Below, in pieces: positions 42,688 to 63,173 of a stretch of DNA of 64,000 nt. The DNA comes from a bacterium. GTDB taxonomy: Bacteria > Auribacterota > JABMQX01. Under the pieces are notes generated by a model, which did not search any database, was not told the origin of the DNA, and worked only from the letters and a program-made list of their open reading frames with translations. The stretch is from NCBI GenBank assembly GCA_030691545.1, contig JAUYEE010000115.1:3949-67948 (forward strand), given 5' to 3'. The first letter of the stretch is position 1. The number at the start of each line of letters is the position of its first letter. A program made the translations under genes and the position numbers.

Positions 42688-44565
42688 ATGCACAGGCCAC
42701 ATTTCTTCATACCGGTACTCTTAGCCGTATTTTTGTTGTCCGGCCCTACGCCGGCAACCCAGGTTACGCTTCAACCCATCAAGGATAACACCCTGTATCA
42801 AAGCGCGACCGGCTCCACAAGCAACGGAGCAGGGACCTACTTCTTCGTCGGCACAACAGCCGGGGGAAGCGTGCGGCGAGGGCTTTTGGCCTTTGACGTC
42901 GCCGGCAACGTCCCTGCTGGCGCCACCATCAGCAGCGTCACGCTGACTCTTCACATGTCCAGGACGGTCGCGCTGAATCAGACTGTCTCCCTCCACCGAG
43001 TTCTCGCCGAATGGGGAGAAGGAACTTCCAATGCCGGGGCCAACGAGGGGGGAGGCGCCCCAGCGACCACCGGCGACGCAACCTGGCTGCACCGTTTTTA
43101 CAACACAAGCTTCTGGACGACGCAGGGCGGCGATTTCGCCGCGACAGCCAGCGCCAGCGTGTCCGTCGGCGGCATCGCGTCCTACACCTGGAACTCCACG
43201 CCCCAGTTAGTGGCGGACGTGCAACTGTGGCTGGACTCGGGGTCGCAGAACTTCGGATGGCTTGTTCGCGGAAACGAATCAGCCAGTTCGACAGCCAAAC
43301 GATTTGATTCGAGCGAGAGTCTCAGCGCGACGTTTCGACCCGCACTCACGATTAACTTCTCGGGGGGCTCTTTCCCTCCGGTTATAACCTTGCGGGGTTC
43401 AAATCCGCTCACACTCCCAGTGGGGACTCCCTACGTGGAACCGGGGTACACCGCAACCGACAACGAGGATGGCGACCTAACCGCGAACGTCGTCGTGACG
43501 GGCTCCGTCAACCACAATGTTCTCGGGAGCTATGTCCTGCGCTACAACGTGACCGACTCCGGCGGGAATCCCGCTGTCGAGAAGACCCGGACAGTGAATG
43601 TCGTGGATACTACCGCGCCCGTCATCACCCTCGTGGGGGCGAACCCCGTGACCCTCGAGGTGGGGACCGCCTACGTGGAGCCGGGATACACCGCTACGGA
43701 CAATTACAACGGAAACATCACGGGGAGCGTCATAGTGACCGGCTCTGTGAATCACATGGTCTTGGGGAGTTATGTCCTGCGCTACAACGTGAGCGACTCC
43801 AGCGGCAATCCAGCCGTGGAAAGGACCCGGACAGTGAACGTGGTGGATACTACCGCGCCGGTCATCACCCTTGCGGGCGCGAACCCGATGACTCTCGATG
43901 TGGGGACCGCCTACGTCGAGCCGGGATACACGGCAACGGACAATTATGACGGAGACATCGCCGCGAATGTAGTCGTGACCGGCTCCGTGAACCACCCGGT
44001 CTTAGGCGCCTATGTCCTGCGCTACAACGTGAGCGACTCCAGCGGCAATCCAGCCGTCGAGAGAACCCGGACAGTGAATGTGGTGGATACTACCGCGCCG
44101 GTCATCACCCTTCTGGGCGAGAACCCGCTTGTACTCGTCGTGGGGACTCCCTACGTTGAGCCGGGATACACCGCTACGGACAACTATGACGGAGATATCA
44201 CCACGAATGTAGTCGTGAGCGGGTCAGTCAACCACGATGTTCCCGGTGCGTACACTCTGACCTACAACGTCTCCGATCTCGGTGGGATTCCCGCGGAAGA
44301 GAAGGCCCGGACGGTGATTGTCGTCGAGGAACCTGTCGTCCTCGAGGTAATCATAGCCAGCGACGGGACTCTCTCCTTGACCTGGAACGATTTAGGCGCC
44401 AACTTCGTGTACACGGTCGAATCGAGGACAGCGTTGCTCGACGGGGATTGGGCTCCGCTGCCTCCTGCAGATCAGTGGCCCACGGCGAGCACGAGTTGGG
44501 CAGGCATCTCCAGTACGAACGGGCAGATGCTCTTCTTGCGAGTAAAGGGCGAGCTGCTGCCCTGA
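42688..44565 (+). CDS. Secreted protein: DNRLRE domain, four DUF5011-like Ig repeats, conserved C-terminal domain
   Basis: KDNTLY...RRGLLAFD; four 80-aa repeats at 240-nt period (43441, 43681, 43921, 44161); GGAGG RBS. Confidence 0.92.
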   Translation: MHRPHFFIPVLLAVFLLSGPTPATQVTLQPIKDNTLYQSATGSTSNGAGTYFFVGTTAGGSVRRGLLAFDVAGNVPAGATISSVTLTLHMSRTVALNQTVSLHRVLAEWGEGTSNAGANEGGGAPATTGDATWLHRFYNTSFWTTQGGDFAATASASVSVGGIASYTWNSTPQLVADVQLWLDSGSQNFGWLVRGNESASSTAKRFDSSESLSATFRPALTINFSGGSFPPVITLRGSNPLTLPVGTPYVEPGYTATDNEDGDLTANVVVTGSVNHNVLGSYVLRYNVTDSGGNPAVEKTRTVNVVDTTAPVITLVGANPVTLEVGTAYVEPGYTATDNYNGNITGSVIVTGSVNHMVLGSYVLRYNVSDSSGNPAVERTRTVNVVDTTAPVITLAGANPMTLDVGTAYVEPGYTATDNYDGDIAANVVVTGSVNHPVLGAYVLRYNVSDSSGNPAVERTRTVNVVDTTAPVITLLGENPLVLVVGTPYVEPGYTATDNYDGDITTNVVVSGSVNHDVPGAYTLTYNVSDLGGIPAEEKARTVIVVEEPVVLEVIIASDGTLSLTWNDLGANFVYTVESRTALLDGDWAPLPPADQWPTASTSWAGISSTNGQMLFLRVKGELLP

Positions 44566-44648
44566 GCGACCGTGACATTACCGCAGACACGGAAGTACGA
44601 GACCGCAGAGGTCCCCGAGAGCAGGAGAGGCAAACACAGCAACACCAC

Positions 44649-44699
44649 ACAGGATTAACAGGATTTTCAGGATTATCCTGTCTATCCTGTTATCCTGTC
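44649..44699. repeat. Short-period inverted tandem repeat, 3x CAGGAT then 3x ATCCTG; possible bidirectional terminator
   Basis: ACAGGATTAACAGGATTTTCAGGATTATCCTGTCTATCCTGTTATCCTGTC between convergent genes. Confidence 0.7.
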
Positions 44700-44709
44700 C
44701 AAATCGCGG

Positions 44710-45978
44710 TTAGCCCTCCCCGCCACCGAGGCGTTGCGCCTGGAGGACGAGCTCCTGTGCTGGCACCCCGTACGGGCATCGCTCGGTGCATTGACCGCAC
44801 TTCGTGCACTGCTCGGCTTTTATTCGCGCGCGGCTGTACTCACTTTTCGCCCAGTCCGCAAGCCCGTAATGGCGAGCGTACAGCTCGAGCCGCAGAATGC
44901 GAGGGATTTCGATCTTGGCGGGGCATGGCAAACACCGGTTACAGAGCACGCAGTTCTCCTTCACAGACTCGTGAGCCTTTGGCCGCAGAGCCTTCTCCCG
45001 CTCCTCACTGAACCCCTTGAACCGGACCGCGGCTCCGATGCCGCTGGCAATATGCGACTCTTCTAAGAAGCCGACGGACAAACAGGAAACGTCCTGATAC
45101 AGCCCGAAGCCAATACAGTTCTCGAGCCTCTCCTCACGGCTGCGGCCAAGAGGCCCATCCAGCTCCGGTGTGGAAGACAAAAGCCGTCCGCGCCAGAGGG
45201 TTTTCATTCCCACGACTCCCACGTCCATCTTCTTCGCCGCCGGCACCACCACCTCGAGAAACTCTCGCCAGATGGGGTTCACGGGAACTTCAACAACCTC
45301 GATCTTACCCGTGTTGAGCATCCTGACCATAGCAGTCGGCGCCTGGTGGCCCGTCGCGGCGATGTGCCGGATTTTCCCCGCCTCCTTTGCCTTCTCCAGG
45401 TCGGGGAGGAGCTGCTGGATAAGCCGATCAGCCGTATCCTCGCTCATCCACGTCCCGTGCATACCGTACACGTCAATGTGGTCTGTGCCGAGTCTCTGGA
45501 GGCTCTCCTCCAGCATCTCGCGCGCTGAGTTCCCTCTCCCCAAGGGGCATCGCGAAAAGAGAATCAACTTGTCGCGTTTCCCCTTGATGGCCTGCCCGAA
45601 CGCCTTCTCAATATAACCCCTCCCGTAGATGTACGACACGTCTATGAAATTCAGCCCCAGCTCCATCGCCTCGTCGAGCATCTTCGCGATGGTCTTCTCC
45701 GGGACAGGCGTCGGCACTTCCTCAAAGAGCGGCGCCCCGCCGAACGCTAACTCGCTCACCATCAACCCGGTCTTGCCGAGGCGTCGCTTTCGGAGTTGCC
45801 GCGGACCGGCCGCCGGTTCCTCTTTCTCCGAAGCAGCGCGCAGCGAAAACCCCCTGAGTGAGACAATCGCCCCCACCGCCGCCGCGGTACTCCGCTTGAT
45901 GAACTGCCGGCGATGAACCAGCCCGTTCAGCGAGTCCTTCTTTCCTCTTCCTTGAGTGCTGCTGTCTTCGCGAACCAT
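44710..45978 (-). CDS. Aldo/keto reductase with C-terminal 4Fe-4S dicluster, Tat signal
   Basis: HRRQFIK, RLGKTGLMVS, SLQRLGTDHID, CVLCNRCLPCP, CTKCGQCTERCP. Confidence 0.92.
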   Translation of the reverse strand: MVREDSSTQGRGKKDSLNGLVHRRQFIKRSTAAAVGAIVSLRGFSLRAASEKEEPAAGPRQLRKRRLGKTGLMVSELAFGGAPLFEEVPTPVPEKTIAKMLDEAMELGLNFIDVSYIYGRGYIEKAFGQAIKGKRDKLILFSRCPLGRGNSAREMLEESLQRLGTDHIDVYGMHGTWMSEDTADRLIQQLLPDLEKAKEAGKIRHIAATGHQAPTAMVRMLNTGKIEVVEVPVNPIWREFLEVVVPAAKKMDVGVVGMKTLWRGRLLSSTPELDGPLGRSREERLENCIGFGLYQDVSCLSVGFLEESHIASGIGAAVRFKGFSEEREKALRPKAHESVKENCVLCNRCLPCPAKIEIPRILRLELYARHYGLADWAKSEYSRARIKAEQCTKCGQCTERCPYGVPAQELVLQAQRLGGGEG

Positions 45979-46011
45979 AACTCCTACTCCTTGGATGGCT
46001 TGTTCACGCTT

Positions 46012-46247
46012 ACCGCAGGCTTTCCTAATAACTGTCACAAACCTTTCACGGCGGTCCGAATCAGGACGACCCACCGTGAGCACTGTCGTCGGCTGCCGGG
46101 CTTCAGCCGGCATCCCCCGCCTAGCCACCGTCTTCAGGCGGTGGTATCAGGGTTGCGAAGCTTTCTGGCCGGAGCCGGCTTTAACCGGGCTTCTCGACCA
46201 GCGGATTCATCCAAAAATACGTCACCGAATTTGCGAAACGGAGCACC
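46012..46247. mobile_element. MITE-like element family A, copy 2
   Basis: Left end GCAGGCTTTCCTAATAACTGTCACA; right end reverse complement GTGCTCCGTTTCGCAAATTCGGTGACG; same REP core at ~46093-46212. Confidence 0.65.
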
Positions 46248-46269
46248 TTGTCCCGCGCACTCGCCTCGC

Positions 46270-47535
46270 CTACAGAACGATTGCCTCCTTCTCGCGGTCG
46301 AAGCGTGCGGCTGTCTGCTCGCGGAGGCTCAGAACGCCCATTTGCAGAGCCGTCTGAACGTGGTAGCCGAGGTCCTCGATGGGGCTCCACGGTTTCTCCC
46401 GCGTCCGGCAGCACTTCAAGAAATTACGCCAGTGCTCGAGAACATCCTCGCCCCGCTCGACAGCAACGAACTTCTCCTTCCGCTCCGCCCCTGGCTGGGG
46501 GCGAATGGCGATGTTGTTTCCCTCGAACGTGATTGTCCCCTCCCAGCCGCGAATCACCGGGCATCTGCCTCCGCTGCTACGATTCGCAATCCCAGGGTAA
46601 TCGTTGCCTTGCGTGCCGAGCACCGCAATGGTGATTTTCTCCGGGTAATCTATCAGCATATTGAACGTGTCCGGCACCTCGCGTTCTTCGTACCGGAACT
46701 TGCCTCCGGTGCCCACGACCAGGCTCGGAAACGTCACTCCAAGCATCTTGACCACGGGAGTGAGGGTATGCGGGAACAGGTCCGTCGAAGGGCCGCCTGC
46801 ATAATCCCAGTACATTCGCCAGCAGAAGAATCGGCTGACCGAGAACGGCCGCTCTGGCGCGTCGAAGAGAAACGCCTCCCAGTTCAGGTCTGGCCCCGGC
46901 TTGGCGTTCGGGTCGTCAATCGGCATTCCTCTCTCGCCCCAATCGCCGATCCGGAAGTAGCCGCACTCCGCGTGAATCGGCTGCCCGATGGCGCCCTCCT
47001 TGATCAACTGCGCCGCCTGATGCCAGGCCGTATCCGACATCCCTTGCGTTCCCGCCTGGACAACCCGCTTGCTCTTCTTCACCTCCTGGGACACCTTCTT
47101 GGTCAGCTCGAACTGCCGCCAGTGCGTGATAGGCTTTTCGCAATAGGCGTCCTTTCCCGCCTGTACCGCGTCAATCACCTGAAATCCGTGATGATGGTCC
47201 GGCGTGGCGATGCACACCGCGTCCACTCGCGTGTCCGCAAGAAGTTCGCGGTGATCCGAGTATCCTTTCACGCTTAACAGCCGCATTGCCGCCTCCAGCC
47301 GCGGGCGATACAGGTCCATAACCGCGACCGCTTCCACAGCATCCCCCGCCTGCCCCAACTGTTTCACGTACCCCATGTGCGCGTTCCCTCGCCCGCCGCA
47401 CCCGATAAACCCGACGCCTATTTTATCGTTTGCCCCCAGTGCGCGAGAAAACGACGCCGCAGTCAACGTCGCACCGACTGCCGCCCCTGCCGTCCTCCCC
47501 AAAAACTCCCTCCGATTCAGCCTCTCCTTGAGCAT
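46270..47535 (-). CDS. Gfo/Idh/MocA oxidoreductase, Tat signal
   Basis: LNRREFLG, GCGGRG, TPDHHH, CEKPI. Confidence 0.95.
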   Translation of the reverse strand: MLKERLNRREFLGRTAGAAVGATLTAASFSRALGANDKIGVGFIGCGGRGNAHMGYVKQLGQAGDAVEAVAVMDLYRPRLEAAMRLLSVKGYSDHRELLADTRVDAVCIATPDHHHGFQVIDAVQAGKDAYCEKPITHWRQFELTKKVSQEVKKSKRVVQAGTQGMSDTAWHQAAQLIKEGAIGQPIHAECGYFRIGDWGERGMPIDDPNAKPGPDLNWEAFLFDAPERPFSVSRFFCWRMYWDYAGGPSTDLFPHTLTPVVKMLGVTFPSLVVGTGGKFRYEEREVPDTFNMLIDYPEKITIAVLGTQGNDYPGIANRSSGGRCPVIRGWEGTITFEGNNIAIRPQPGAERKEKFVAVERGEDVLEHWRNFLKCCRTREKPWSPIEDLGYHVQTALQMGVLSLREQTAARFDREKEAIVL

Positions 47536-47884
47536 CGTCGTCCCTCCTCTCTGTGTCCTTCGTGTTCTTCGTGGTTTTCTCCGTTCCTCCACTCGCCCTG
47601 CTGCGCTCATCCGCGTCCATCTGCGGTTTCTTTCCTTCTATCCATTGGTTACCGTGAGAGAGTATGCCACGAGGCACGACGCAACCGCAATCAATCATTC
47701 CTCGGAACAAGCGGAGGGTAGGATTCAACCGATGTGCTGGGTCGGCAAGGAAGGAAGATGATGAGGGGCGAAGCAGGCTGTGCTGACATGGAGGCCCCTG
47801 GGTTTGCCCCGCCGTAGCAGCCCCCACGCACCAGCAACGACCATCCGGCGCGTGTTCCGTACCTCGGCACGACACCGGGCTCTA

Positions 47885-48120
47885 AGTGCAGGCTTTCGCA
47901 AATACGGTCACATACTGCATACGACGGTCTGGATCGCCACGACCCAGTCTAAAGGCCACCCCGCCTTGCCGGGCTTCAGCCGGCATCCTCATTTAGCCAC
48001 CGTCTTCAGGCGGCGGTATTAGAGTCGCGGGATCTCTACTCCGGAGACGGCTTTAGCCGGGCTTCTCGACCATCTGGATTCATTCGTGAATAGGTGACCG
48101 AATTTATGAGACACAGCACT
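47885..48120. mobile_element. MITE-like element family A, copy 3
   Basis: Left end AGTGCAGGCTTTCGCAAATACGGTCACATA; right end reverse complement AGTGCTGTGTCTCATAAATTCGGTCACCTA; TAA at both junctions. Confidence 0.7.
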
Positions 48121-49009: not shown

Positions 49010-49190
49010 GGCTTTTCCCCTCCTGAGGCTGCACCAGTGTTTTCCTGAACTCCCCCACACTCCCGGAGAGTCAAGTTAATTGTCTCCCCCTGCCGCCCCT
49101 GCTTGTCAAGACTTTTTTTCACTTTTTTTCAGACGCGCAAACGGCCCCCTCTGCCGCCCTTTCATTGCCTCCGGCGCCGGGGTTGAAAAG

Positions 49191-49467
49191 GGGTGCGGCT
49201 ACGTTTGAGTGGGACATGCCGCGGGGATTTGCTTGTGACGGCGAGCGCTGAGTCCAGGTTCACTGGGGGGCGCATCCTTGTAACGCCGGCATCTTGCCGG
49301 CTGTGCCGGGGGCATCTTGCCCCCCGTTCCACTTCGTCACGGTGCAACAGGCTGCTTGCGATGCGAGGGCGCGACGCCCTCGCGACTGCCGCCGGGACGG
49401 CGGCGTTACTTCTGTCCTGGCGGGCCGCTGACAGGCTAAGGTCCATCACTCAGGCGTAGCCGCACCC
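49191..49467. mobile_element. MITE-like element family B, copy 1
   Basis: TIR GGGTGCGGCTACGTTTGAGTG vs reverse complement GGGTGCGGCTACGCCTGAGTG; internal REP-like palindromes. Confidence 0.7.
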
Positions 49468-49496
49468 TGCTCCACTCTCGCGCCGCTCACGGCAGG

Positions 49497-52400
49497 TCAG
49501 TACGCGATCAGGCGGTAGAAACGTTTCCTGCCGGGAGGAGCCTCGTCCGAGGTTCGCAGGATGCCTCCGGTCCCTGCCTGAGCGGAGCCCAGGGGAAGCC
49601 ACGCGCCGCCGAGTTCCTCGCAATACTCTACCGAATAGGTCTTGCCGGTAACCGAGGACCAGCTCAGGTTCACGCCGCCATCGGGGCTTATGGACAACTG
49701 AACGCCGAACAGCGACTCCTTATCCACGGGCGAGGCGCCGGTCAGATACTCGAAGCCGTTTGTCTGCCCGTCGCCATCGAAGTCGTCATTCGGCAGCACG
49801 TCGGCGACAGTCAAAATGAGGTCTGCGGCATTCGCGTCAACAATCTGCGTTTCCCAGAGGTCCGGCAGCTTATCGTTATCGCTGTCGGCAAGGGAATTGT
49901 CGAGGGCAAACGCTTCACTCGTTGCCGGGTAGTGAGCCTTCAGGGCAAGGGGGCGGATGCGCATTCGCAATCCCGCCTCTTTCCCGCCGCCGAGGTCCGC
50001 AATGGAGTCCCAGACGAAGGAATGCGCCTTGCCGTCCGCAGAAGTCGAAAGGTCGCGAGTGCTTTCGCTCGACCGCGCTCTTGCCGCCGGGTACCAGCTC
50101 TCGGCTCCATCAGCCGAATAATCTGCCGCGATAGAAGAAATCCTCGCCCGGGCGTTCCAGAGGGTGTAGTTCACCGTGACGAGACCGTTCTCACCGGCGA
50201 CCGGCGGAGAGGGTATCAGAGCAAACACGGTCTCCGGGTTCAACTCATCGGCGCCAATGTCCGGCTCCAGACGGCCGTACCCCTGCAACACCCTCGGCTC
50301 GCCGTCCAAGTCCGTTTCCGTCAAATCGTCCGGCGTCCCATCCCCAATGTCCACACAGGGAGAGTTCGGCAGGAGATGGTAGTCCCGCCCGATGGGTTTG
50401 ACAAACCGCGGGTCCGCGGAGAAATTGTGGTTTTCTCCGACGAAACTGCCGTCGCGAATATTGCAGTATCGGACGCTCGCTGTTCCCAGGATCGCCAGGT
50501 CCGAAAACGTGTTCCACAGCAGGCTGTTCACCAGGCTCACCGAGGATCCATATTCGCCGAAGATGCCGCCGCCCTCATCGGCGAGGTTATCCACGAAAGT
50601 GCAGTTGACGATGGTCAACCCACTCCGGTTGTTGCCTGCAATTGCCCCGCCCGAATATCCTGCGGAGTTCAGCGAAAACTGGCATCCCGTGACCATCGCC
50701 AGAGCCAGGTCAATGCAGCAGATTCCCCCGCCGAATCCCTCTGCGACATTCTCGCGGAATCGGCTTCTCTCGACCCGCAGCCGCGAGTTCTCGTGGCAGA
50801 ATATCCCTCCGCCGCTCTCGGCAGAATTGCCGGAAATCTCCGCCTCAACAATGAGAAGCGAGCAGCCGCTCTTGACGAAAACCCCGCCTCCCCATCCCTG
50901 GACGGCTTCGTTGCCGACGATAGTACACTTTGAAATCGTCGCGGAAGCGGCCTCACAGTATATCCCACCTCCCACACGGGAGCCGTTGCCGAAGTAATCG
51001 CCGACTCCGTTGCGGACGGTGAATCCCTCTACCGAGGAGCCGTTGCCCAGGAGCGCCACGACAGTTCCCTGTCCCAGCGCATCTATCGTCGTCTGCTCCG
51101 CTCCTGACCCGACAACGTGGACGCCCTCTCCAACGACCACTCGCTCGCGGTACAATCCCGGAGAAACAAGCACCACGTCGGAGGGTTTCGCCGCGTTAAC
51201 CCCTTCTTGAATGGTCGGGTAATCCTGCGGCACGCGAATCGGATTGATTTTCAGGGTCACCTCCACGAGCACGTGTTTCTCGGGCGCCTCAAGAGGAACA
51301 ACGTCAATCGTCGCGCCGTAGGTCCCGACGTCGAGGCCCAGCTTGTTCACCGAGACGGCAATGATGTCCTCCTCGCCCGCGTTCGTCCCGGTCACCGGGT
51401 CAACCATGAGCCAGCCGCAGTCCTCCAGCGCCTGCCAGGTCACCCGCGCGATTCCTCGCACTCGAATTGTGAACGACTGGCTCGGAGGATTGCTCCCTCC
51501 CCTCCGCGTGGAGAACGCGAGACTGGTCGGGTTGACCTCCAGCGTAATCTCCCGAGGGGCGATGTAAACGCTGAACTGCTTTTCGGCAGACGCGCGGGGC
51601 TGCTGGCTGTCCGTGACGCGGATGGTGAACGTGTACTCGCCCGGCTCCGTCGGCGTCCCGTTCAATTCCCCGGAGGGACCCATAATCAAACCGGGCGGGA
51701 GGGCGCCGGACGCAATGCTCCAGGAATACGGGAGCTTTCCGCCGCTGCCAGCGAAAACGAGAGCGAAAGGCTCACCGACCTTGCCGTCTGGCAACGGGCT
51801 TCCCGTCGCAATTTGTAACGGCGATTTGGGGATGATTGTGATGGACAACTGCCGTTCCGCAGTGTCCGCAGGCGACTGGCTATCCGCGACCCGCACTGTG
51901 AAGATGGAAGTCCCAATAGCGAGGTTCGTCGGTGTCCCGCTGATGACCCCGGACGCTTGATCGAGTCTCAACCCGTCCGGCAGCGCTCCCTGGGCGAGCG
52001 ACCAGGCGTACGGCAGGACCCCGCCTTTCGCTTCGAGGACTTGCCGGTAGAGCGTGCCTTCTTTTCCGCTCGGAAGAGAGGTCGTCGCTATCGTGAGGTC
52101 TGCCGGAGAAACGCGGACGGAAAATCCCGCGCGAACCGCATCCGCCGGTGACTGGCTATCATTGACCTCGATATCAAATGCGTAATCGCCGTGCTGCAAG
52201 GGCGTTCCGGACAGGGTCCCATCCGAAGAGAGAATCAGTCCACCAGGCAATGACCCTGATGCCACACGCCACGAGTACGGCGGTTTCCCTCCCCCGGCAG
52301 CGAAGTCGTACCGGTAGGATTCTCCCACCTTCGCCTCCGGCAGGGGGCTGCTGGACATAATCCGCAGCTCTTCAGCCGGGCGAATGGCGATGGACAACGT

Positions 52401-55400
52401 CCGCTCGTCCTGCTCGGGGGGAGACTGGCTGTCCGTGACCCGAACCGTGAAGCTCGACGAACCGATGGCGGCGGTCGTCGGTGTACCGCCGATGATTCCC
52501 GTCGCGGAATCAAGCGTCAACCCATCCGGCAGCGATCCGCCGGTGAGAGACCAGGTGAACGGCGACACCCCGCCCGCGACCTCAATCAACCCCTGATAGA
52601 CTGCCCCTTCGATTCCATCCGGCAACGAAACGGTCGTTATTTCGAGTTCTGATGCGGAGATATGAAGCGAGAACTCACGGGTCGCGGCTTCAGGAGTCGC
52701 CTGGCTATCCACAACCCGCACGCCGAACGCGAAATCCCCGTGCTGGATAGTCGTGCCCTGGAGCGTCCCATCCGCCGTTAGAGTCAGCCCGCTCGGAAGC
52801 GATCCGGAAACCAAAGACCATGCGTACGGCCGCTTGCCACCGGCGGCGACAAGCGCCTGGCTGTAGGCTTCATCAACCTTCCCCGTGGGCAGAGGCGAGG
52901 TGGTCTCGATAGACAGGCTTTGTGCAGGCTCGACGGTCAGTCGGAATTCCTGTTCGTCCTGGGCTGGCGAAGCCTGGCTGTCCCGAACTCGAATCGTCAA
53001 CACCCACTCGCCGATGGCTGCGTTTGTGGGGATGCCCGAGACACGCCCTGTCGCCGAGCTAAGGACAAGCCCGTCAGGGAGTGCCCCCGCCACAATCGTC
53101 CACGTGTAGGGCACAACACCCCCCGTTGCCTCCAAGTCTGTGCTGTATGCAACTCCTTCCCGCCCACTGGGCAAGGATAACGTGATGATTCTCAGGTCGG
53201 CCGGAGCAATGGTGAGCGCGAACAACTTAACGGCGGCCACCGGAGGTTCAAGGCTATCGTCAACCCGCACATTGAAAGCGAAGCTCCCATGCTCAACTGG
53301 CGTCCCTGAGAGCGTCCCGTCCGCAGACAAAGCCAATCCCTGAGGCAACTGCCCCGAAGCCATCGTCCACGCGTACGGAACCTTCCCGCCCGAAGCCAGG
53401 AACGTCTGATTGTACGGTTCGCCAACCTTCCCGTCAGGAAGCGGACTCTCCGTTACGATGGTGAGTTCTGAGGAAGGAGTGATGGCGATTGAGAACTGCC
53501 GGTCGCTGGCCGCTGGCGGTGCTTGACTGTCTTCCACGCGAATGACGAAAGTTGAGACGCCAATTGCGGCGTTGGTAGGCGTGCCGCTGACCGTGCCTGT
53601 GCTCTGGTTCAGGGTAAGCCCGTCCGGCAAAGACCCGCTCACGACTCTCCAGATGTACGGCGACACACCGCCGCTCGCTTCAAGGACATGGATGTATGGC
53701 CTTCCCTCCACTCCATCGGACAGGACGGATGTCACCAAGACCAGGTCTGCCGGGGCGATGCGCAGGCTGAATGAGCGGCTGGTTCTCGCGGGCGGTGTTT
53801 GACTATCTGCCACTTCAATTGTAAATGCAAAATCTCCATGCTCCGTCGGCGTGCCAGTCAAGCTGCCTGCTCCGTTGAAGGTCAGTCCCGCGGGCAAACG
53901 CCCATCAACGACTTGCCAGGCATACGGAACCTTTCCTCCGGTGGCGGCGAATGCCGCGTTGTACGGTACGCCGAGTTTCCCATCCGGCAGGGGGCTTGCG
54001 GTCATGATGACCAACTGCGATGCCGGAGCAACAGTCAGGATGAACGTCCGTTCATCTCTTCCTGCGGGAATCTGCGAGTCAGAGACCGCCACCGTCACGC
54101 TCCATTGTCCAATCGCCGCGTTGGTTGGAGTTCCGCTGACGAGTCCCGTTACCGCGTTCAGAATGAGTCCTTCCGGCAGAGTTCCATTGACAATAGCCCA
54201 CGTCAGAGGCTGGACTCCGCCCGTTGCCTGCAAAGCCTGCTGATAGGGCGCCCCTTCAATCCCGTTCGATAGAGACTCCGTAGCGATCCTGAGGTCCGCC
54301 GGAGAAACGTGAATGGAGAAAGACCGTGTGACGGAAGCGGGCGGATTCTGGCTGTCCGTGACGCGCAAGGTGAATTGCGAGTCGCCGTGCAGCGCGGGCG
54401 TCCCGCTGATTGTCCCATCCGCTGACAGATTTAACCCCTGCGGCAGCGAACCGCCATCAAGAGACCATACATAAGGTAGCTTTCCGCCCGATGCCGCGAG
54501 CGATGCATTGTAAATCTGTCCGACTTTCCCGTCGGGAAGACTGCCCGCGGTTGTGATAACGAGCGAGCCTGACGGATGAACGGTAATAGACAACGCACGC
54601 TCGTCGGTCGCCGGTTGGCTTTGACTATCGCTCACGCGCACGGTGAAGGACGCCGTGCCGATGGCATCATTCCCTGGGATGCCGCTGATAATCCCGCTGG
54701 CGCCGAGGCTCAGCCCGTCCGGAAGCGCCCCGGCAGATAATTGCCAGGTGTAAGGAGGGATTCCGCCCGCGGCGCTCAAGCTCTGGCTATAAGCAGAACC
54801 TTCCACTCCGTCCGCAAGGGAATTGGTCGTGATGACGAGGTCTGCTGGCAATATCCGAATGGCCATCCCTTTCGCGTCTGTATCCGGCGTTTGCTGAGAA
54901 TCCGTGACCCGGATGACGAACGAAAAATCGCCGTACTGCGTCGGAACGCCCGAAAGCCTCCCGTCCGAACCGAGATTCAACCCTTGCGGCAGGGTTCCCG
55001 AAGCCACATCCCATGTGTAGGGCAACTTCCCGCCTGTGGCCGTGAACGCGAACCCATAACTCTCGCCAACTTTCCCATCCGGTAAGGGCGAAAACGTCAC
55101 GATGCTCAGCGGCTTCGCTGGAATGATTGTCAGAGAAAAGGCGCGGGTATCCGTTGAGGGGGGACTCTGGCTGTCGCTCACCTCGACGGTGAAGCTCCAC
55201 GTTCCAATGGCCGCATTGGGAGGAGTTCCGGTGATGACTCCGCCGCCTGAGAGGGTCAACCCCTGGGGGAGCGTCCCGGCGATGATCCGCCACGAATAAG
55301 GTTCTATACCGTCAGCCGCTACGAGGAAAGCATTGTAGGCTTGCCCCTCTGTTCCATCAGGGAGAGATGTAGTCTGAATCGCCACGTCTGCCGGTTCAAT

Positions 55401-57752
55401 GTGGATAATGACCTGTTGGCTATCGCTGTCGGGAATCTGCTGGCTGTCTTCAACCCGGACCACGAACGTGAAATCGCCGCGAGCCGTCGGCGTACCAGAC
55501 AGCGTGCCGCCGGACGACACGTTGAGACTCGGCGGAGGCGAGCCAGACTCAACCTCCCACACGTGAGGCAGTTTCCCACCCCTCGCTGTAAAGGTGAACG
55601 CGTACGCCTCACCGACCTTCCCATCCGGAAGCGTCGGACTCGACGTGATTGTATCGGCCGCCCCTGCCGCGATGCTCACCGAATAACCCTGATCGTCCGT
55701 ATCGGGCGGACTCCGGCTGTCGCTCACCCGCACGATGAAGTTCCACGTCCCAATCGCGGCATTTGTCGGTGTCCCGCTGATGGTTCCGCTTGAACCGTTC
55801 AGCGTGAGACCCTGTGGCAGGACACCACCGACCACCTGCCAAACATACGGCGTTGCCCCGCCCGCTGCCTGCAATGTCTGGCTATATGCAATTCCTTCCG
55901 TGCCGGAGGGAAGCGACGCCGTCTGAATGACGATGTCAGCCGGGGAGATAGTGAGCGCGTACTGCTTGCTTGCCGTGTCCGCCGGGTCCTGGCTATCGCT
56001 CACCCGGACGGCGAACTGGAACTGCCCGTATTCTTGCGGCGTCCCTGAGAGAACACCGTCTGCCGCGAGGCTCAACCCATTTGGCGGCGCGCCCGACGTC
56101 ACATCCCAACTATGGGGCAGTCTGCCCCCGCTGGCCGTGAACGTCATGCTGTATGCCGCGCCGACTTTCCCTGCGGGTAATGGCGACGCCGTGCCGATGA
56201 CGAGGTCCGCCGCCGGGGCAATAGTCAGAGAAAACACCTGCGTGTCGGTGTACGGTGGAGACTGGCTATCTTCGGCCTGAACATTGAAAGCCCATGTGCC
56301 AATCGCGGCGTTCGTGGGCGTCCCGCTGAGGACGCCGGTGTTCGGATTGAGCGATAAGCCGTCCGGTAGTCCGCTTGACACCACCGTCCAGCGGTACGGA
56401 GGAATCCCTCCCTGAGCTTGCAGCGTCTCCGAATAGGCCTGCCCTTCAACGCCGGCGGGGAGTGTCGTGGTTGTAATCACCACCTCGGGGGGCGAGACGT
56501 GCAAATCAAACACAGCCGAGTCTGTCGCAGGCGGGCTGCCCCGGTCCGTGACCTCCACCGTGAACGAGAAATCGCCGTATTCTCCCGGCGTTCCGCTGAG
56601 GACTCCGTTCTCCGAAAGGCTCAGCCCCGACGGTAACGACCCGGAAGCGACGCTCCATGCGTAATTCCAGTAGCCCCCTTTTGCCTCGAACGTGAAGGTG
56701 TACGGGTTGCCCTTCTTTGCGTCCGGAAGCGGGCTTGTGCTCACAATTTCAAGGGGGACATCGCAGGGCGCCGTAAGCGGACTCCACTCCGGGTCCTGTT
56801 CATCCGGCTCAGGGGTGGAGCCCAATTGCCCATGATTGTCGTCTCCAGCGAGGTCGTGAGCGTCCTGCCCGGCCCCCTCGTCGAGATTCCAGTACGCCAC
56901 AAGCCCCTGTTCGGTCCCCGTCATCCGGACGTTCATTGTCCGGTTGATTTCTTGGGGCGTCCGGCATCGGTTCCAGACTCGGACTTCATCCAGGCGTCCG
57001 TTCCAGGAAAGGAGGTAACCCACAGGACTCCATCCGAGCGTCAGAAGCCCGTTGTTGTGAACGGGTTGCAATTGCGTCGGAATGGAGTTCTCCAGTTGCC
57101 CGTCTATGTACAGAGAAAGAGTGCTCCCGTCGTAGGTCCCCGCAACGTGGTGCCATTCCCCCTCCAGGTCCGGTGCCTTGGTCTGCGAATAGACCCGCGC
57201 ATACGAAATCCCGTTTCCGATGCTCCAGCCCACGCATTGCGTGTACTGGCTCGGGTTTCCACGATAATCGTTTATCCCCTCGATGAACATCAGGTAATTG
57301 GAGTCGGCGGGGGTCGTGTCCGGTTCCGGCGGAAGGTTCTTGTCTAAAATGGCGTAACCGCTCAAAAGACCGAGGTCCTCAGTCAGCAGAACCCACACTT
57401 CCACCGTCATCTGGCTGACGTTGAGGTCCGGGTCCGCGGGCACCTCGACCATGTCATACCACGGGTTGAAATCGAGGCACGTCCCCGCCGCACGAAGCGA
57501 AGCAGGGAATGCGGTCATGATGAAAACGCTTGCCGCGACCGTGACAAGCCGCAGGAGTCGTCTCGCGACCGGCATCGCCGGATGTAGCGCGGGCGTCCCC
57601 CTGGCCGTAGCCCTCGGGCAGGCTGGCCGCGCATCGCGGCAGAGCGCGGGTGCGCGCAAGCTCGCAATAGCGGTGTCCGGCGCTCGTGCGCGGCCGCGGG
57701 CAGGCTCGCCTGCATCACCGGATTTTTTCGGGCTGGATGAAAAAAGGCGCAT
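49497..57752 (-). CDS. Giant surface protein: LamG, 19 putative Ig repeats, BACON-like, beta-helix, choice-of-anchor Q-like, TSP3-like, C-terminal domain
   Basis: WHHVAGTYDG/LDEVRVWN; LPDG...Y...W...G.LP.GL.L...G.LSGTP repeats; VPQDYPTIQEG; DIGADE; DGDGQTNGFEY; start 57752 (strong RBS) or 57575. Confidence 0.93.
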   Translation of the reverse strand: MRLFSSSPKKSGDAGEPARGRARAPDTAIASLRAPALCRDARPACPRATARGTPALHPAMPVARRLLRLVTVAASVFIMTAFPASLRAAGTCLDFNPWYDMVEVPADPDLNVSQMTVEVWVLLTEDLGLLSGYAILDKNLPPEPDTTPADSNYLMFIEGINDYRGNPSQYTQCVGWSIGNGISYARVYSQTKAPDLEGEWHHVAGTYDGSTLSLYIDGQLENSIPTQLQPVHNNGLLTLGWSPVGYLLSWNGRLDEVRVWNRCRTPQEINRTMNVRMTGTEQGLVAYWNLDEGAGQDAHDLAGDDNHGQLGSTPEPDEQDPEWSPLTAPCDVPLEIVSTSPLPDAKKGNPYTFTFEAKGGYWNYAWSVASGSLPSGLSLSENGVLSGTPGEYGDFSFTVEVTDRGSPPATDSAVFDLHVSPPEVVITTTTLPAGVEGQAYSETLQAQGGIPPYRWTVVSSGLPDGLSLNPNTGVLSGTPTNAAIGTWAFNVQAEDSQSPPYTDTQVFSLTIAPAADLVIGTASPLPAGKVGAAYSMTFTASGGRLPHSWDVTSGAPPNGLSLAADGVLSGTPQEYGQFQFAVRVSDSQDPADTASKQYALTISPADIVIQTASLPSGTEGIAYSQTLQAAGGATPYVWQVVGGVLPQGLTLNGSSGTISGTPTNAAIGTWNFIVRVSDSRSPPDTDDQGYSVSIAAGAADTITSSPTLPDGKVGEAYAFTFTARGGKLPHVWEVESGSPPPSLNVSSGGTLSGTPTARGDFTFVVRVEDSQQIPDSDSQQVIIHIEPADVAIQTTSLPDGTEGQAYNAFLVAADGIEPYSWRIIAGTLPQGLTLSGGGVITGTPPNAAIGTWSFTVEVSDSQSPPSTDTRAFSLTIIPAKPLSIVTFSPLPDGKVGESYGFAFTATGGKLPYTWDVASGTLPQGLNLGSDGRLSGVPTQYGDFSFVIRVTDSQQTPDTDAKGMAIRILPADLVITTNSLADGVEGSAYSQSLSAAGGIPPYTWQLSAGALPDGLSLGASGIISGIPGNDAIGTASFTVRVSDSQSQPATDERALSITVHPSGSLVITTAGSLPDGKVGQIYNASLAASGGKLPYVWSLDGGSLPQGLNLSADGTISGTPALHGDSQFTLRVTDSQNPPASVTRSFSIHVSPADLRIATESLSNGIEGAPYQQALQATGGVQPLTWAIVNGTLPEGLILNAVTGLVSGTPTNAAIGQWSVTVAVSDSQIPAGRDERTFILTVAPASQLVIMTASPLPDGKLGVPYNAAFAATGGKVPYAWQVVDGRLPAGLTFNGAGSLTGTPTEHGDFAFTIEVADSQTPPARTSRSFSLRIAPADLVLVTSVLSDGVEGRPYIHVLEASGGVSPYIWRVVSGSLPDGLTLNQSTGTVSGTPTNAAIGVSTFVIRVEDSQAPPAASDRQFSIAITPSSELTIVTESPLPDGKVGEPYNQTFLASGGKVPYAWTMASGQLPQGLALSADGTLSGTPVEHGSFAFNVRVDDSLEPPVAAVKLFALTIAPADLRIITLSLPSGREGVAYSTDLEATGGVVPYTWTIVAGALPDGLVLSSATGRVSGIPTNAAIGEWVLTIRVRDSQASPAQDEQEFRLTVEPAQSLSIETTSPLPTGKVDEAYSQALVAAGGKRPYAWSLVSGSLPSGLTLTADGTLQGTTIQHGDFAFGVRVVDSQATPEAATREFSLHISASELEITTVSLPDGIEGAVYQGLIEVAGGVSPFTWSLTGGSLPDGLTLDSATGIIGGTPTTAAIGSSSFTVRVTDSQSPPEQDERTLSIAIRPAEELRIMSSSPLPEAKVGESYRYDFAAGGGKPPYSWRVASGSLPGGLILSSDGTLSGTPLQHGDYAFDIEVNDSQSPADAVRAGFSVRVSPADLTIATTSLPSGKEGTLYRQVLEAKGGVLPYAWSLAQGALPDGLRLDQASGVISGTPTNLAIGTSIFTVRVADSQSPADTAERQLSITIIPKSPLQIATGSPLPDGKVGEPFALVFAGSGGKLPYSWSIASGALPPGLIMGPSGELNGTPTEPGEYTFTIRVTDSQQPRASAEKQFSVYIAPREITLEVNPTSLAFSTRRGGSNPPSQSFTIRVRGIARVTWQALEDCGWLMVDPVTGTNAGEEDIIAVSVNKLGLDVGTYGATIDVVPLEAPEKHVLVEVTLKINPIRVPQDYPTIQEGVNAAKPSDVVLVSPGLYRERVVVGEGVHVVGSGAEQTTIDALGQGTVVALLGNGSSVEGFTVRNGVGDYFGNGSRVGGGIYCEAASATISKCTIVGNEAVQGWGGGVFVKSGCSLLIVEAEISGNSAESGGGIFCHENSRLRVERSRFRENVAEGFGGGICCIDLALAMVTGCQFSLNSAGYSGGAIAGNNRSGLTIVNCTFVDNLADEGGGIFGEYGSSVSLVNSLLWNTFSDLAILGTASVRYCNIRDGSFVGENHNFSADPRFVKPIGRDYHLLPNSPCVDIGDGTPDDLTETDLDGEPRVLQGYGRLEPDIGADELNPETVFALIPSPPVAGENGLVTVNYTLWNARARISSIAADYSADGAESWYPAARARSSESTRDLSTSADGKAHSFVWDSIADLGGGKEAGLRMRIRPLALKAHYPATSEAFALDNSLADSDNDKLPDLWETQIVDANAADLILTVADVLPNDDFDGDGQTNGFEYLTGASPVDKESLFGVQLSISPDGGVNLSWSSVTGKTYSVEYCEELGGAWLPLGSAQAGTGGILRTSDEAPPGRKRFYRLIAY

Positions 57753-57907
57753 TCTCCCCTCCCTTAGGAAGACGCTTGGATAGCCCTCTGAGGTGTGAAA
57801 AGTACGCAGTTTTGCGCGAAAACACCCATACCCTGGGGCCTCCAGCACAGAAAAGACTTCACCGCAGCTATGTTTCTATATCGCACACAAAACGCTGCTT
57901 CGCAAGG

Positions 57908-57923
57908 TGCAAAATGAGTGCCA
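57908..57923 (-). promoter_or_regulatory. Putative sigma-54 promoter of the giant gene
   Basis: Consensus TGGCAC-TCATT-TTGCA on the minus strand. Confidence 0.7.
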
Positions 57924-58184
57924 TCACGACGCATATTTTCCATTGCTTGCTCCCTTGTCCGAATGCCGGGAAAAAAGGCATTGTTCCATCCGGTCCCGCC
58001 TGTCGAAAAAGAGGGGCAACTGGCCCACCGGTACCTCCGGCGCGGCTGTATTTCAGCGGGCGGTTGTCCGGCTTGGCCCCATGAGCCCGGAGGCTCTGTT
58101 GCCACTATGTGGGCTTGCCCGACCGCGAGACAATAGCACAAAGGCCGGCGGTTACGTTTTGCCGGCTTTAGCCGGCACCCCCTG

Positions 58185-58552
58185 GGGTGGGGCTACGTTT
58201 GAGTGGTTCGTCCCGGCACGCCAAAACTCATGTCTCGCCCTTTCCATCATCACCCGAAGTGGCGTGCGCATCTCTGGCCGAGCAGGCCCTCCGGCCTCCG
58301 TACGCGAGGGCAGTCGGATTCCCACCATGAGACGCCAATCGAGCTCATGGGCAGGCTTGCCCATGATGAATCACGGGTCCCGCCACAGGCGGGATGCCAC
58401 TCCCTCCCCGCCGGGCTTTAGCCGGCGCCCCTCTCGTTAGCCACGGGCTTTAGTCCGTGGCGTTGCTACGCTGCAGGTTTCTGCCTGAGCAGGCTTCAGC
58501 CTGGCTTCTCGATGAGGGGATTCATCCGTACTCCTCATACGTAGCCACACCC
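58185..58552. mobile_element. MITE-like element family B, copy 2, containing the family A REP core (58409-58530)
   Basis: TIR GGGTGGGGCTACGTTTGAG vs reverse complement GGGTGTGGCTACGTATGAG. Confidence 0.65.
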
Positions 58553-58567
58553 ACTCGCTTCCGCGCC

Positions 58568-58596
58568 TTGTTTTCGCTGCACCCCCCTGTTACAAT
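58568..58596 (+). promoter_or_regulatory. Putative sigma-70 promoter with extended -10
   Basis: TTGTTT-N17-TACAAT with TG at the extended -10 position. Confidence 0.5.
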
Positions 58597-58663
58597 CGAA
58601 GGCCGGAACAAAACATCGGCCTCGCCGGCCCGTAAGCATGACCGCGCACTCAGGAGTGACGCC

Positions 58664-60535
58664 ATGTTCGCCCACAATCCAGTCCACTCGTCATCACAAG
58701 TCGAGAGAAGCGTAGCGCAGGCGTCTCGCCTGCCTCCTCTCGTCCTGAGTCTCTTATCCCTGCTCGCCTGTTGTAGTTCTGCATCAGCCTCTCAACGGAC
58801 GGTTATCCTCGAATCACCCCCTACGACCGCCGAGCGCTATTCCGTCTTTGAACTGCAGCTCCGAGTTGACAACCCCGTGGCGAAGAATCCCTTCACCGAG
58901 GTTACCGTGGCAGGCCAATTCACACACAGCGGCGCAGACTCTCTCACCATTAAAGGCTTCTGCGATTCCCCCGAAGGGCTGCTCTTCCGCGTTCGATTCT
59001 GCCCGCAGGAAGTGGGCGACCACAGCTTCCTCGTAACCTATTTTGACCGCGAAGGCAGCGAGGAGTTTCGTGGCAGTTTCACTTCGAACGAAGCCGGGCG
59101 CAAGTGCTTCATTCGCGTGGACCCAGAGTACCCAAATCACTTCATGTACGAAAACAGCGGTCATCCCTTCATCTGTTCCAAAACAGCCTGGGTAATCGGC
59201 GATACCGTTAACTGGCGGGGCTTTCTCGACAAAATGGTCACCCGAAAGGAAAATTGCATTCGCTTCGGCGTCGAGACGAATTACTACCACGAGACCATCG
59301 GCAAAGACGTCTGGCCGTGGGGCGGCACTCGCTCGAATCCCGATTTCTCCCGCTTCAATCCGGCGGTCTGGCAGAAGCTCGAGCAAATCATTGCCTACGC
59401 TGCGGAGAGAGGTATCTTATCCGAGCCGGTCATCTTCTGCTCCCTGCGCCGTGAGAACCCGACCGCCCCCGACCCTGAAATGGAACGATACTGGGACTAC
59501 CTCATCGCCCGCCTTTCACCCTTCACGAGCATCATCACATGGCAACTCTACAACGAATACGCTTCGGCAAAAAGCTACCAGCAATACATGGCCGAATACA
59601 TTCGCCAGCGGGATCCTTACAAACACCTCATCTGCTCCTCCGCCGGGACGACGAACGACGCCCTCTGGCCCACCGAGCCCTGGATGGACATCGCCATCAA
59701 CCACTCCTGCACCGACGACAGCCAACTCGAATCCCGCTACCACGCTATCGCCACGCGCATCCACGGCTACGGCAAACCCGCCTGGTGCGACGAGACCGGC
59801 CGCGAGAACCGCCACGGCAACAACTCCGGCGTCCACCGCCGCAAGCAGTACTGGACGTGGAACATCTGCGGGGACTACTGGTCGTACCATTCCTGGGAAG
59901 GGTGCGAGGGGATCGATGACCTCGCCTACAATGGACCGGGTTCGGACTTCCTACAGTTCATTCGCCCCTTCTGGGAGAAAACGGAATGGTGGAAGATGCA
60001 ACCTGCCGACGAGCGCGTTCTGAACAACCCCCTTTCCCAATACGAATGGTGCATTGCCTCCGACAACGAGACCGTCGTCTATATGGTCAACGAGGCGGAG
60101 GGCGCCTCGACCACGGAGGGAACGATTGAGCTGGCAGTCGGAGCCGGTTCCTATTCCGTAGTGTTCTATTCCCCCGCCAGCGGCACATACTTGGAAAAGT
60201 ACCAGCGCTCCGGCTACCACACGGGCGGGAAGCTCTCTCTGACCCATCCCCCCTTCGTTGACGACCTCGTCGTCTATGTGAAACATGATAACCGCCCGCA
60301 GCCGGCAACCATTCCTCGGCGGGAGGGACAAGACGGACTGAACCTGCGAATATCGTGGGCGGGCGTCTCTGACGAAAGCTACTGGGTTGAATGCAGCCCC
60401 GACCTCTTCCAGTGGCAGAACGCCTCATCCCTCTCCGACTATGAGCCTCCTTCCTACCACAAGACCGGCTCCTGGTCCTGGCCAGACTCCTCTTGGACTA
60501 CAGTTCCCACGCGATTCTATCGTCTGGCGAAATGA
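58664..60535 (+). CDS. Secreted DUF5060/DUF4038-like putative glycosidase with C-terminal domain
   Basis: NPFTEV...GFCDS..G..FRVRFCP, WQLYNEY, PAWCDE; AGGAG RBS before MFAHNP. Confidence 0.82.
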   Translation: MFAHNPVHSSSQVERSVAQASRLPPLVLSLLSLLACCSSASASQRTVILESPPTTAERYSVFELQLRVDNPVAKNPFTEVTVAGQFTHSGADSLTIKGFCDSPEGLLFRVRFCPQEVGDHSFLVTYFDREGSEEFRGSFTSNEAGRKCFIRVDPEYPNHFMYENSGHPFICSKTAWVIGDTVNWRGFLDKMVTRKENCIRFGVETNYYHETIGKDVWPWGGTRSNPDFSRFNPAVWQKLEQIIAYAAERGILSEPVIFCSLRRENPTAPDPEMERYWDYLIARLSPFTSIITWQLYNEYASAKSYQQYMAEYIRQRDPYKHLICSSAGTTNDALWPTEPWMDIAINHSCTDDSQLESRYHAIATRIHGYGKPAWCDETGRENRHGNNSGVHRRKQYWTWNICGDYWSYHSWEGCEGIDDLAYNGPGSDFLQFIRPFWEKTEWWKMQPADERVLNNPLSQYEWCIASDNETVVYMVNEAEGASTTEGTIELAVGAGSYSVVFYSPASGTYLEKYQRSGYHTGGKLSLTHPPFVDDLVVYVKHDNRPQPATIPRREGQDGLNLRISWAGVSDESYWVECSPDLFQWQNASSLSDYEPPSYHKTGSWSWPDSSWTTVPTRFYRLAK

Positions 60536-60554
60536 ACAGCCATACCGCCCACTA

Positions 60555-61814
60555 TTACATTTCCACACGGAAGAATTGCACCGTCGTCGGCACGCTCAGC
60601 GTGAACGACGTGCTCTCGCCCTGAGAGGAGATAGGGGCCTTTCTCGCCCTGACCCACTCTCCGCTCGACAGGTCATCGCACAGCCAGACCATGTACCTCG
60701 CCAGCGGCTGGCTATTCCAGGTCAATACGAGGCTCTCCCCATTTACGACGCTGAGCGCCGTCAGGACGAAGGGCGCCGCGTTGTGCTCGTATGCTCCCAT
60801 GTCCACCGTCAGCGATTTCCCGCCGAAGGCGATGCGAAGATTTCCGTCCAGGTCTAGCCCGAATGAACCCAGCGACATATTGTCTCCGGCATCAACGCAC
60901 GGCGAGCCGGGCTCCAGCCGGTAGTCTCCTCGCGGCGCATCACGAAAAGCCGGGGGACTGGTCATGTTCCCGGTGCCGCCGCCAGTCCAGTCCTGGATGC
61001 AACTGAACGAAGGAATGCTTGCTGTGTCAATCTGATCCCCCGAGTTCACTGCGTCGTTTGCCCAGAAGATGCAATTAGCGATTGTGCCCATGCAGTTGTA
61101 TATCCCGCCTCCGCTGAGTCCGGCAGAATTGCCATAGATGGTGTTGTTGACGATGCTCCCGTCGCACCGAGCCAATCCCCCAGCCTGCTCGTCCGCCGAA
61201 TTCGATATGATCAAATTGCTTTGCATAACCCCATCGCAGAACGCCATCGCACCGCCCATGGCAGCGGAGTTCTCCACGAAGACATTATTCTCCACTAACC
61301 CATCGCAGCCATACAGGCCGCCACCGCCGACTGGTCACCCCTCATCCGCACGGTTGCCAGTGATGATGTTGTTGCGAATCGTGGCGAGAGTGTGGGTGCT
61401 TTCCGTGCCGCCTCGGACGCCGCCGCCGTAATCCGCCCTTCCGTTGCGAATCGTGAAGCCCGCGAGGACGCAAATCGCCTTCTCCGTGCCTGAGAAGCTC
61501 ACCGCCGAATCCGCCCCATCACCGTCAATGACGGTCCCTCGCACGACTTCCGGGTCCAGCGGATTCGTGCTCCGCAACACGATATTCTTGCCTTCGAACC
61601 GGATATTCTCCAGGTAGGTCCCCGGCGCCACAACGACCCTGTCCCCATCCGCCGCCGCGGCTATCCCCTCCTGAATGCTTTTGAACGCCTTTGCCCACGA
61701 CGTCCCTTCGCCCGTCGCCGGCGCGTCCGCGTCCACGTACCATACTGACGCGACCGCTCCGGCCGAAAACCTCGCCGCTGCTGCAACACACGCAAGCAAG
61801 ACTGTCTTCCGCAT
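60555..61814 (-). pseudogene. Secreted beta-helix/choice-of-anchor Q-like protein with C-terminal domain, split by an in-frame TGA
   Basis: ORFs 61335-61814 and 60555-61295 are in the same frame: ...GNRADEG*PVGGGGLYGCDGLVENN... Confidence 0.75.
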
Positions 61815-63170: not shown

Positions 63171-63173
63171 CTT

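Follow-up and report, generated by a model that had tools for sequence, protein, structure and literature searches.

SLH, LysM and CWB2 modules, choline-binding repeats and dockerins are found in one to many copies at one end of unrelated exported proteins. The C-terminal domains (CTDs) of the type IX secretion system (T9SS; TIGR04183 / PF18962) are beta-sandwiches of about 70-80 residues; a genome has roughly one to two hundred unrelated proteins that carry a signal peptide and end in such a domain. Short tripartite signals (LPXTG, PEP-CTERM, GlyGly-CTERM, MYXO-CTERM) are likewise located at the C-terminus of many unrelated exported proteins. Verrucomicrobia-like bacteria and many uncultured diderms place hundreds of degradative enzymes outside the cell. 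This study concerns a domain, here called the tail, which closes four otherwise different proteins encoded in a stretch of 64,000 nucleotides (hereafter the window; contig JAUYEE010000115.1, positions 3,949 to 67,948), and which is compared below with each of these systems. Tentatively, we read the tail as an end module for surface retention or attachment that would act non-covalently.

The tail family in the window and in its genome

The genome of origin (5,878,105 bp in 358 contigs, 58% GC, 94% complete, 2% contaminated) was searched as 52,162 stop-to-stop open reading frames (ORFs), using hidden Markov models (HMMs) of the tail at a domain threshold of E <= 1e-4. A first HMM, built from the four window tails alone, matched 55 ORFs, namely the four themselves and 51 others; the similarity is thus beyond chance, and the proposal of a preliminary description of the window that the four tails form one family holds, with the position and translation of each confirmed. 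After four iterations the search converged on 206 ORFs with exactly one copy each, corresponding to about 4% of the genes of the genome (4,788 in a crude gene call). The tail is terminal, meaning that the HMM envelope ends at most 20 residues from the ORF end, in 190 of the 206 (92%), mostly 3-4 residues from that end, and internal or N-terminal in the other 16, so that the matches are not mostly internal. In 140 of 174 terminal copies the stop follows the [FY][YF][RK]x motif by 3-4 residues. The family consensus reads ...L-x-W-x-S-x2-G-x2-Y-x-V-x3-D-L-x3-W...T-x-W-x-D...R-F-Y-R-[VIL].

Tail and carrier coordinates in the window are given below, the tails as envelopes of the genome-trained HMM (domain E from 2.7e-15 to 3.2e-8).

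42688..44565, plus strand: gene 1 (ORF from 42589; likely start M34 at 42688)
44365..44544, plus strand: tail 1 (domain E 2.3e-8), ending ...LFLRV, stop 6 residues on
49497..57575, minus strand: gene 2 (ORF extends to 57848; likely start M92 at 57575)
49509..49679, minus strand: tail 2 (domain E 2.7e-15), ending ...RFYRL, stop 3 residues on
58664..60535, plus strand: gene 3 (ORF from 58457; likely start M70 at 58664)
60341..60526, plus strand: tail 3 (domain E 3.2e-8), ending ...RFYRL, stop 2 residues on
60555..61814, minus strand: gene 4, interrupted (two ORF pieces split by an in-frame TGA at 61335-61337)
60564..60737, minus strand: tail 4 (domain E 5.6e-12), ending ...QFFRV, stop 2 residues on

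Upstream of their tails, the four proteins are unrelated to each other. Scans against Pfam and NCBIfam place in gene 1 a signal-peptide-like N-terminus, a DNRLRE/CBM96-like domain and four Bact_surface_Ig-like domains ahead of the tail. The much longer gene 2 encodes a signal-peptide-like N-terminus, LamG, 19 He_PIG repeats, BACON_2, a right-handed beta-helix and an acidic linker with calcium motifs, and gene 3 a signal peptide with a lipobox-like LLAC followed by DUF5060 and an apiosidase-like glycosidase domain. In gene 4 the upstream piece (61338-61814) holds a signal-peptide-like N-terminus and beta-helix, and the downstream piece (60555-61295, an ORF of 246 residues) holds beta-helix, a choice-of-anchor Q domain matched at residues 124-171 and, starting a few residues further on, the tail. 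When gene 4 is read through with X at the TGA, its product aligns over the whole length with intact paralogues, which mostly have Gly at this position, and the codon may have arisen by nonsense mutation or through an error in the assembly. A signal peptide had been ascribed to all four tailed proteins; judged by eye from the translations it is present in genes 1 to 3, but not in the fourth ORF (60555-61295), whose N-terminal signal lies on the upstream piece. As had been noted, there is no C-terminal transmembrane segment: F[YFL]R[LV] is followed in all four by 2-6 residues to the stop, with no hydrophobic stretch past the motif.

The presence of tails on otherwise different proteins extends to the whole genome, where 176 N-terminal parts of at least 100 residues fell into 46 single-linkage clusters (one with 119 members, nine with 2-4 and 36 singletons). 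The large cluster consists of beta-helix paralogues, so that much of the tail count reflects the expansion of one gene family. The expectation that signal peptides accompany the tail also found some support, as a crude heuristic detected a signal-peptide-like N-terminus in 131 of the 158 terminal carriers uncut by a contig end; this contrast is only indicative, since among 1,912 control ORFs (400 residues or longer) the same heuristic detected 919. A lipobox-like motif was seen in only 21 of the 131 positive carriers.

Pfam was searched with 54 carriers, comprising ten from the large cluster (a random 12 with the two longest dropped) and one from every other cluster except the window's own. 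A family was assigned to 39 of them, including peptidases (M28, M36, C25, S8, S9, M10), GH2, carbohydrate-binding modules (CBM6/35/60/96), CotH, LTD, NHL and PD40 propellers, MtrC-like multihaem cytochromes, VWA, Amidase_3, purple-acid-phosphatase-like proteins, DUF3160 and DUF362. These families are typical of extracellular proteins, and no best stretch listed in the 54 scans fell on the tail. The sequence just ahead of the tail is recurrent as well: a GAYE-type end of the choice-of-anchor Q domain lies at most 45 residues before 59 of the 190 terminal tails, and a TSP3-like calcium motif at most 130 residues before another 36. Among homologues of gene 3 the tail is found in only 11 of 87, all of them close relatives, and homologues at about 47% identity end without it; in three of the 11 a CBM96 domain stands between enzyme and tail, and the tail is still last.

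The clearest exceptions to the C-terminal rule are five FGE-sulfatase-like (SUMF1-type) proteins (contigs C356, C33, C181 and C280), in which the tail domain is N-terminal, just past the signal region. Furthermore, four giant ORFs (contigs C333, C316, C280 and C356) have, after the FYRV domain, another conserved domain of 115-380 residues that begins ...G-I-Y-T-x-P-V-G-F-V and that also occurs in two more ORFs lacking the tail.

Fold, distribution and relation to known domains

No Pfam family matched any of the four tails, even at E <= 10, and no NCBIfam family covers them. An alignment of 44 tails, with tail 2 as its first sequence and as the one modelled, was used for profile work. Compared with the sequences of the PDB, this profile matched a Clostridium thermocellum Fn3-like structure (3mpc, E 3.5e-4) and the Fn3 module of CtXyl5A (5g56, E 0.01). 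The alignment with 3mpc stops at residue 73 of the 103 in the chain, on the F strand that corresponds to FYRV, and leaves about 30 residues over. The AlphaFold2 model of the tail (predicted local distance difference test, pLDDT, 87.6) has strands at 13-17, 23-28, 34-40, 60-65 and 74-79 of 80 residues; the rows returned by Foldseek were almost all fibronectin type III (FN3) domains, with top template modelling scores of about 0.55-0.62 and all E >= 0.01. The top structures in VIA-align were 5g56 (Z 8.1) and 3mpc (Z 7.9), and as Z values of about 8 are common there for models with no clear match, the evidence from sequence and from structure is taken as a single line. A tandem of two copies found in another organism was modelled with a pLDDT of 83.2, giving six strands per unit, each unit ending at FYRV, and a linker of about seven residues.

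On this combined evidence, the tail is a self-contained, FN3-like beta-sandwich of about 65-75 residues, which ends at strand F ([RK]-F-Y-R-[VIL]) and lacks strand G. The family is absent from Pfam and NCBIfam, and the fold itself is known. With bacterial FN3 domains (PF00041; 3mpc, 5g56) the tail has in common the beta-sandwich with a B-strand Trp, a C-strand Tyr and a Y-x-R/V F strand, as well as its occurrence on secreted multidomain enzymes. In contrast to the seven strands of FN3 it has six, no Pfam model detects it, and it nearly always closes the protein, unlike FN3 modules, which usually serve as linkers inside it. The G strand is missing from all copies examined, namely the single and tandem models and the alignment with 3mpc; as a speculation from these models, the open edge thereby left on strand F could be completed by a strand of a partner. 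No description of the tail domain was found in the literature covered, subscription journals being outside that coverage.

Relatives were represented by 20 genomes, which together with the genome of origin form a 21-genome sample of the phylum; per-genome counts given as at least 150 are lower bounds. Tails number from 125 to at least 150 in the four other genomes of the same family and 8-14 in the five of its sister family, and among eleven further families of the phylum the count is 0 in eight genomes and otherwise 1, 2 and 10. Further afield, 81 tails were counted in a Pedosphaera metagenome-assembled genome (MAG) and 80 in a Verrucomicrobiae MAG, with none in Phycisphaerales and Calditrichales MAGs and one marginal match in a Zixibacteria MAG. 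In the Verrucomicrobiae MAG the stop comes at most 20 residues after 19 of the 20 best matches, and the twentieth is followed by a second copy, which is terminal. Ribosomal protein L2 does not discriminate between phyla here: its identity is 56-59% with the pair of Verrucomicrobia MAGs, 59-62% with members of three other phyla and 60-68% with genomes of the same phylum or class, and among its best matches the one informative name was Candidatus Eisenbacteria (68%). The host lineage may lie outside the classical Verrucomicrobia.

On a global scale, an exhaustive profile search returned 31,937 representative proteins at E <= 1e-3, of which 2,505 also pass E <= 1e-10. The top proteins have 2-41 matched stretches, and since the best 150 were ranked by summed score this list is biased towards multi-copy proteins. 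With the tail HMM 136 of the 150 were detected again; the interval between copies is 70-100 residues in 264 of 469 cases, and 76 of the 136 proteins end with a tail domain. The nearest clusters in the ESM Atlas have no Pfam family and are mostly from Verrucomicrobiota.

Comparison with the type IX secretion system

The preliminary description had called the tail analogous to the T9SS CTD, not necessarily homologous with it, and the comparison agrees. TIGR04183, the model of the type A CTD, has no match in this genome, none in the 20 relatives apart from one marginal match, and none in the two Verrucomicrobia MAGs or the Phycisphaerales MAG; in five genomes of the Fibrobacteres-Chlorobi-Bacteroidetes (FCB) group, used as positive control, it was counted 37, 72, 117, 132 and at least 150 times, and the tail had either no match or one marginal match there. 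Tail and T9SS CTD thus do not occur together in the genomes tested, a division that follows phylogeny and is therefore not independent evidence. Homology was rejected in a direct comparison of the 44 tails with 20 CTDs from the five FCB genomes, for which hhalign gave a probability of 5.3% over 28 columns, in the region of strands E and F only. Moreover, the T9SS CTD was not among the structure matches listed for the tail model by Foldseek and VIA-align, although some similarity is still possible.

The two domains do share an architectural slot. In a beta-helix protein from a Calditrichales genome, a T9SS CTD (464-543 of 546) comes directly after the choice-of-anchor Q domain (407-442), an order found in one of the three such proteins in the five FCB genomes, and the tail takes that place in gene 4. 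The name choice-of-anchor refers to domains that stand ahead of alternative anchors, with LPXTG-type and CTERM signals among their partners, according to a passage of a preprint that deals with the related A family (bioRxiv 10.1101/2023.03.06.531300). The carrier families overlap too, as M36 and C25, both found with tails, are named T9SS-dependent in Bacteroidota by NCBIfam. Furthermore, the CTD consensus S-G-x-Y-F-Y-R-L in the penultimate strand resembles the final R-F-Y-R-V strand of the tail, a resemblance that the low hhalign probability does not support as homology. The CTD differs from the tail by an additional strand at its end. The tail, for its part, is also found in tandem, internally or N-terminally and is carried by different lineages; no T9SS components were found alongside it in the searches for SprA and PorU described below. 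The tail probably fills the slot of the T9SS CTD without being that domain and, on the retention reading set out below, is itself probably not a translocation signal. From the short tripartite signals it differs in being a folded domain that lacks a transmembrane helix or basic end, with 2-6 residues past the last strand; a regular expression found only three PEP-CTERM-like ORFs in the genome.

No sorting machinery is visible in the window, as had been stated, and the suggestion that co-distributed outer-membrane or processing genes might be found through the tail gained nothing from the few tests made. The T9SS translocon protein SprA (TIGR04189) has no match in the 94%-complete genome, in a search that had no positive control. 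The model of the T9SS sortase PorU detects one C25 peptidase (C163:8640-11456) at 255 bits (E 1e-75), against a cut-off of 420. This peptidase was rejected as a processing partner because close orthologues were found in G003 and G004 only and not in the tail-rich relatives G001 and G002, with at least 148 tails each. The gene ends right after the catalytic domain, and its neighbours (contig C163:1-12219) encode a radical-SAM/SPASM maturase with a PqqD domain, an HprK-related kinase A and an archaeal-type signal peptidase I. All 21 genomes of the phylum sample have secretins, with many tails or few, and their presence is thus uninformative. On contig C80 (2193-9115) one of five secretin-family genes (at about 5300-6823) lies between the tail genes 2193-5045 and 7175-9115; as 15% of all genes adjoin a tail gene, this placement may be due to chance.

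Possible roles of the tail

The reading that we tentatively prefer is that of a surface-retention or attachment module. Carriers would be exported by ordinary Sec signal peptides and, once outside the cytoplasm, would be kept or positioned at the cell surface by non-covalent binding of the tail to a shared component of the envelope or matrix, or to a shared docking protein. This would follow the logic of SLH, LysM, CWB2 or dockerin modules, which serve many unrelated exoproteins from one end, singly or in tandem. A folded module that is found singly or in tandem, nearly always at the C-terminus, on any kind of exported protein has the pattern of non-covalent anchoring and docking modules, and the tandem arrays, together with the 16 non-terminal copies, fit binding or retention better than a dedicated translocation signal. 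The likeness to SLH, LysM, CWB2, choline-binding and dockerin modules lies in what was observed for the tail, namely its terminal position, single or tandem, on unrelated exported proteins; their folds are unrelated to it, and no counterpart of cohesin is known for the tail. The window also contains, at 1-24000 on the minus strand, a long one-strand cluster of surface-polysaccharide genes, with GT1/GT2/GT4 glycosyltransferases, a DegT aminotransferase, an epimerase, a pyruvyl transferase, a Wzm/Wzt-type ABC exporter and a polysaccharide deacetylase. The polymer made by this cluster is one conceivable ligand for a retention module.

Several observations weigh against this reading. The tail has no known ligand or partner, and none emerged from the few tests made (neighbour enrichment and the searches for PorU, SprA and secretins). 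Next to tail genes, the only families found enriched are likewise secreted and multidomain (FG-GAP, giant proteins with LamG, BACON and beta-helix, and sulfatase-HEAT), with no candidate machinery among them. The best-conserved residues (W, Y, W and F-Y) look like determinants of the fold rather than a binding site, and 119 of the 176 carriers belong to a single paralogous beta-helix family. Moreover, bacterial exoenzymes often use FN3-like modules simply as spacers.

Alternatively, the tail may be an FN3-like module of the ordinary kind, serving structure, spacing or adhesion, and its carriers would share no targeting role; it would have become terminal mainly because it is easily gained at the 3' end and was then inherited in expanding paralogue families. 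Its FN3-like sequence and fold, the conservation of core aromatics, the dominance of one paralogous family and the long tandem arrays, which recall adhesins built of Ig, FN3 or PKD domains, are all consistent with this possibility. Nevertheless, a spacer has no reason to come last in 92% of the copies in this genome and in 19 of the 20 best ones in a distant Verrucomicrobiae genome, nor to stay last where CBM96 has been inserted; 45 further unrelated architectures have gained the tail at the same end, and every copy examined has lost the canonical G strand. We consider this explanation somewhat less likely than retention.

The preliminary description had seen in the tail a dedicated export or anchoring signal. 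The tag-like placement on unrelated exported proteins stands; what does not fit such a signal is that the tail is an FN3-like folded domain, occurs in tandem arrays elsewhere and is non-terminal in 16 of 206 ORFs. In its strongest form, the idea makes the tail a cargo tag: a dedicated system in the outer membrane, for secretion or attachment and a functional counterpart of T9SS, would recognise the tail, carry the protein across the outer membrane and cleave the tail or use it for covalent attachment. The single copy in all 206 ORFs, with 190 at the extreme C-terminus, argues for it, as do per-genome numbers resembling those of T9SS CTDs (125 to at least 150 in the five genomes of its own family and 80-81 in the Verrucomicrobia MAGs, as compared with 37 to at least 150 in FCB genomes), the separation of tail and CTD in every genome tested, and the M36 and C25 carriers and choice-of-anchor Q slot common to both. 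However, the complementary distribution tracks phylogeny, homology to TIGR04183 is lacking, and the tail is found in tandem arrays and in internal and N-terminal copies; we know of no T9SS CTD in tandem or at internal or N-terminal positions. The machinery searches also speak against a cargo tag, as SprA was not found (in the search lacking a positive control), the sole PorU-like C25 peptidase falls below its cut-off, with no orthologues found in tail-rich G001 and G002, and secretins occur irrespective of tail count. We consider such a system unlikely. We give about as little credence to the related idea that the tail tags an undescribed surface sorting system used by Verrucomicrobiota and this lineage instead of T9SS, in which the open F-strand edge would be completed by a strand of a docking or processing protein (strand complementation).

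Finally, a CBM-like module that would bring the enzymes to their polysaccharide substrates or to particles, and not to the surface of the producer, is suggested by the closest solved relative, the Fn3 module of a cellulosomal arabinoxylanase (5g56), by the glycosidases and CBM-bearing proteins among the carriers, and by the abundance of sulfatase and glycosidase genes in window and genome, but it is improbable, because peptidases, multihaem cytochromes, an amidase, VWA proteins and phosphoesterases with no common substrate also carry the tail, several carriers already have true CBMs, and no aromatic platform is evident beyond the core residues.

Two further features of the window stand apart from the tails. 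At 62055-63998 on the minus strand, a SacI-like restriction endonuclease adjoins a D12-class N6-adenine DNA methyltransferase, probably as a Type II restriction-modification pair. The NAD synthase gene at 26881-27900 (minus strand) has its best match, at 83% identity, in the Zixibacteria MAG, a genome that does have T9SS CTDs; for ribosomal protein L2 the two genomes share only 61% identity, which points to a probable horizontal transfer of the former.

What is new here is the scale of the tail family, with 206 single-copy ORFs in one genome, its equivalence with the T9SS CTD in the slot after choice-of-anchor Q and the lack of overlap between the two in the genomes tested, along with the tandem model and the rejection of the PorU-like peptidase as partner. 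The tail closes about 200 exported proteins of this genome and, having no family model, escapes annotation. Were it an anchoring or sorting module, it would define the surface proteome of these organisms and offer a handle for finding the partner system, and if it were the tag of a sorting system, about 4% of the genes of the genome would be clients of one machine. Should its role be purely structural, a Pfam or NCBIfam model of it would still allow tens of thousands of proteins to be annotated and recognised as extracellular.

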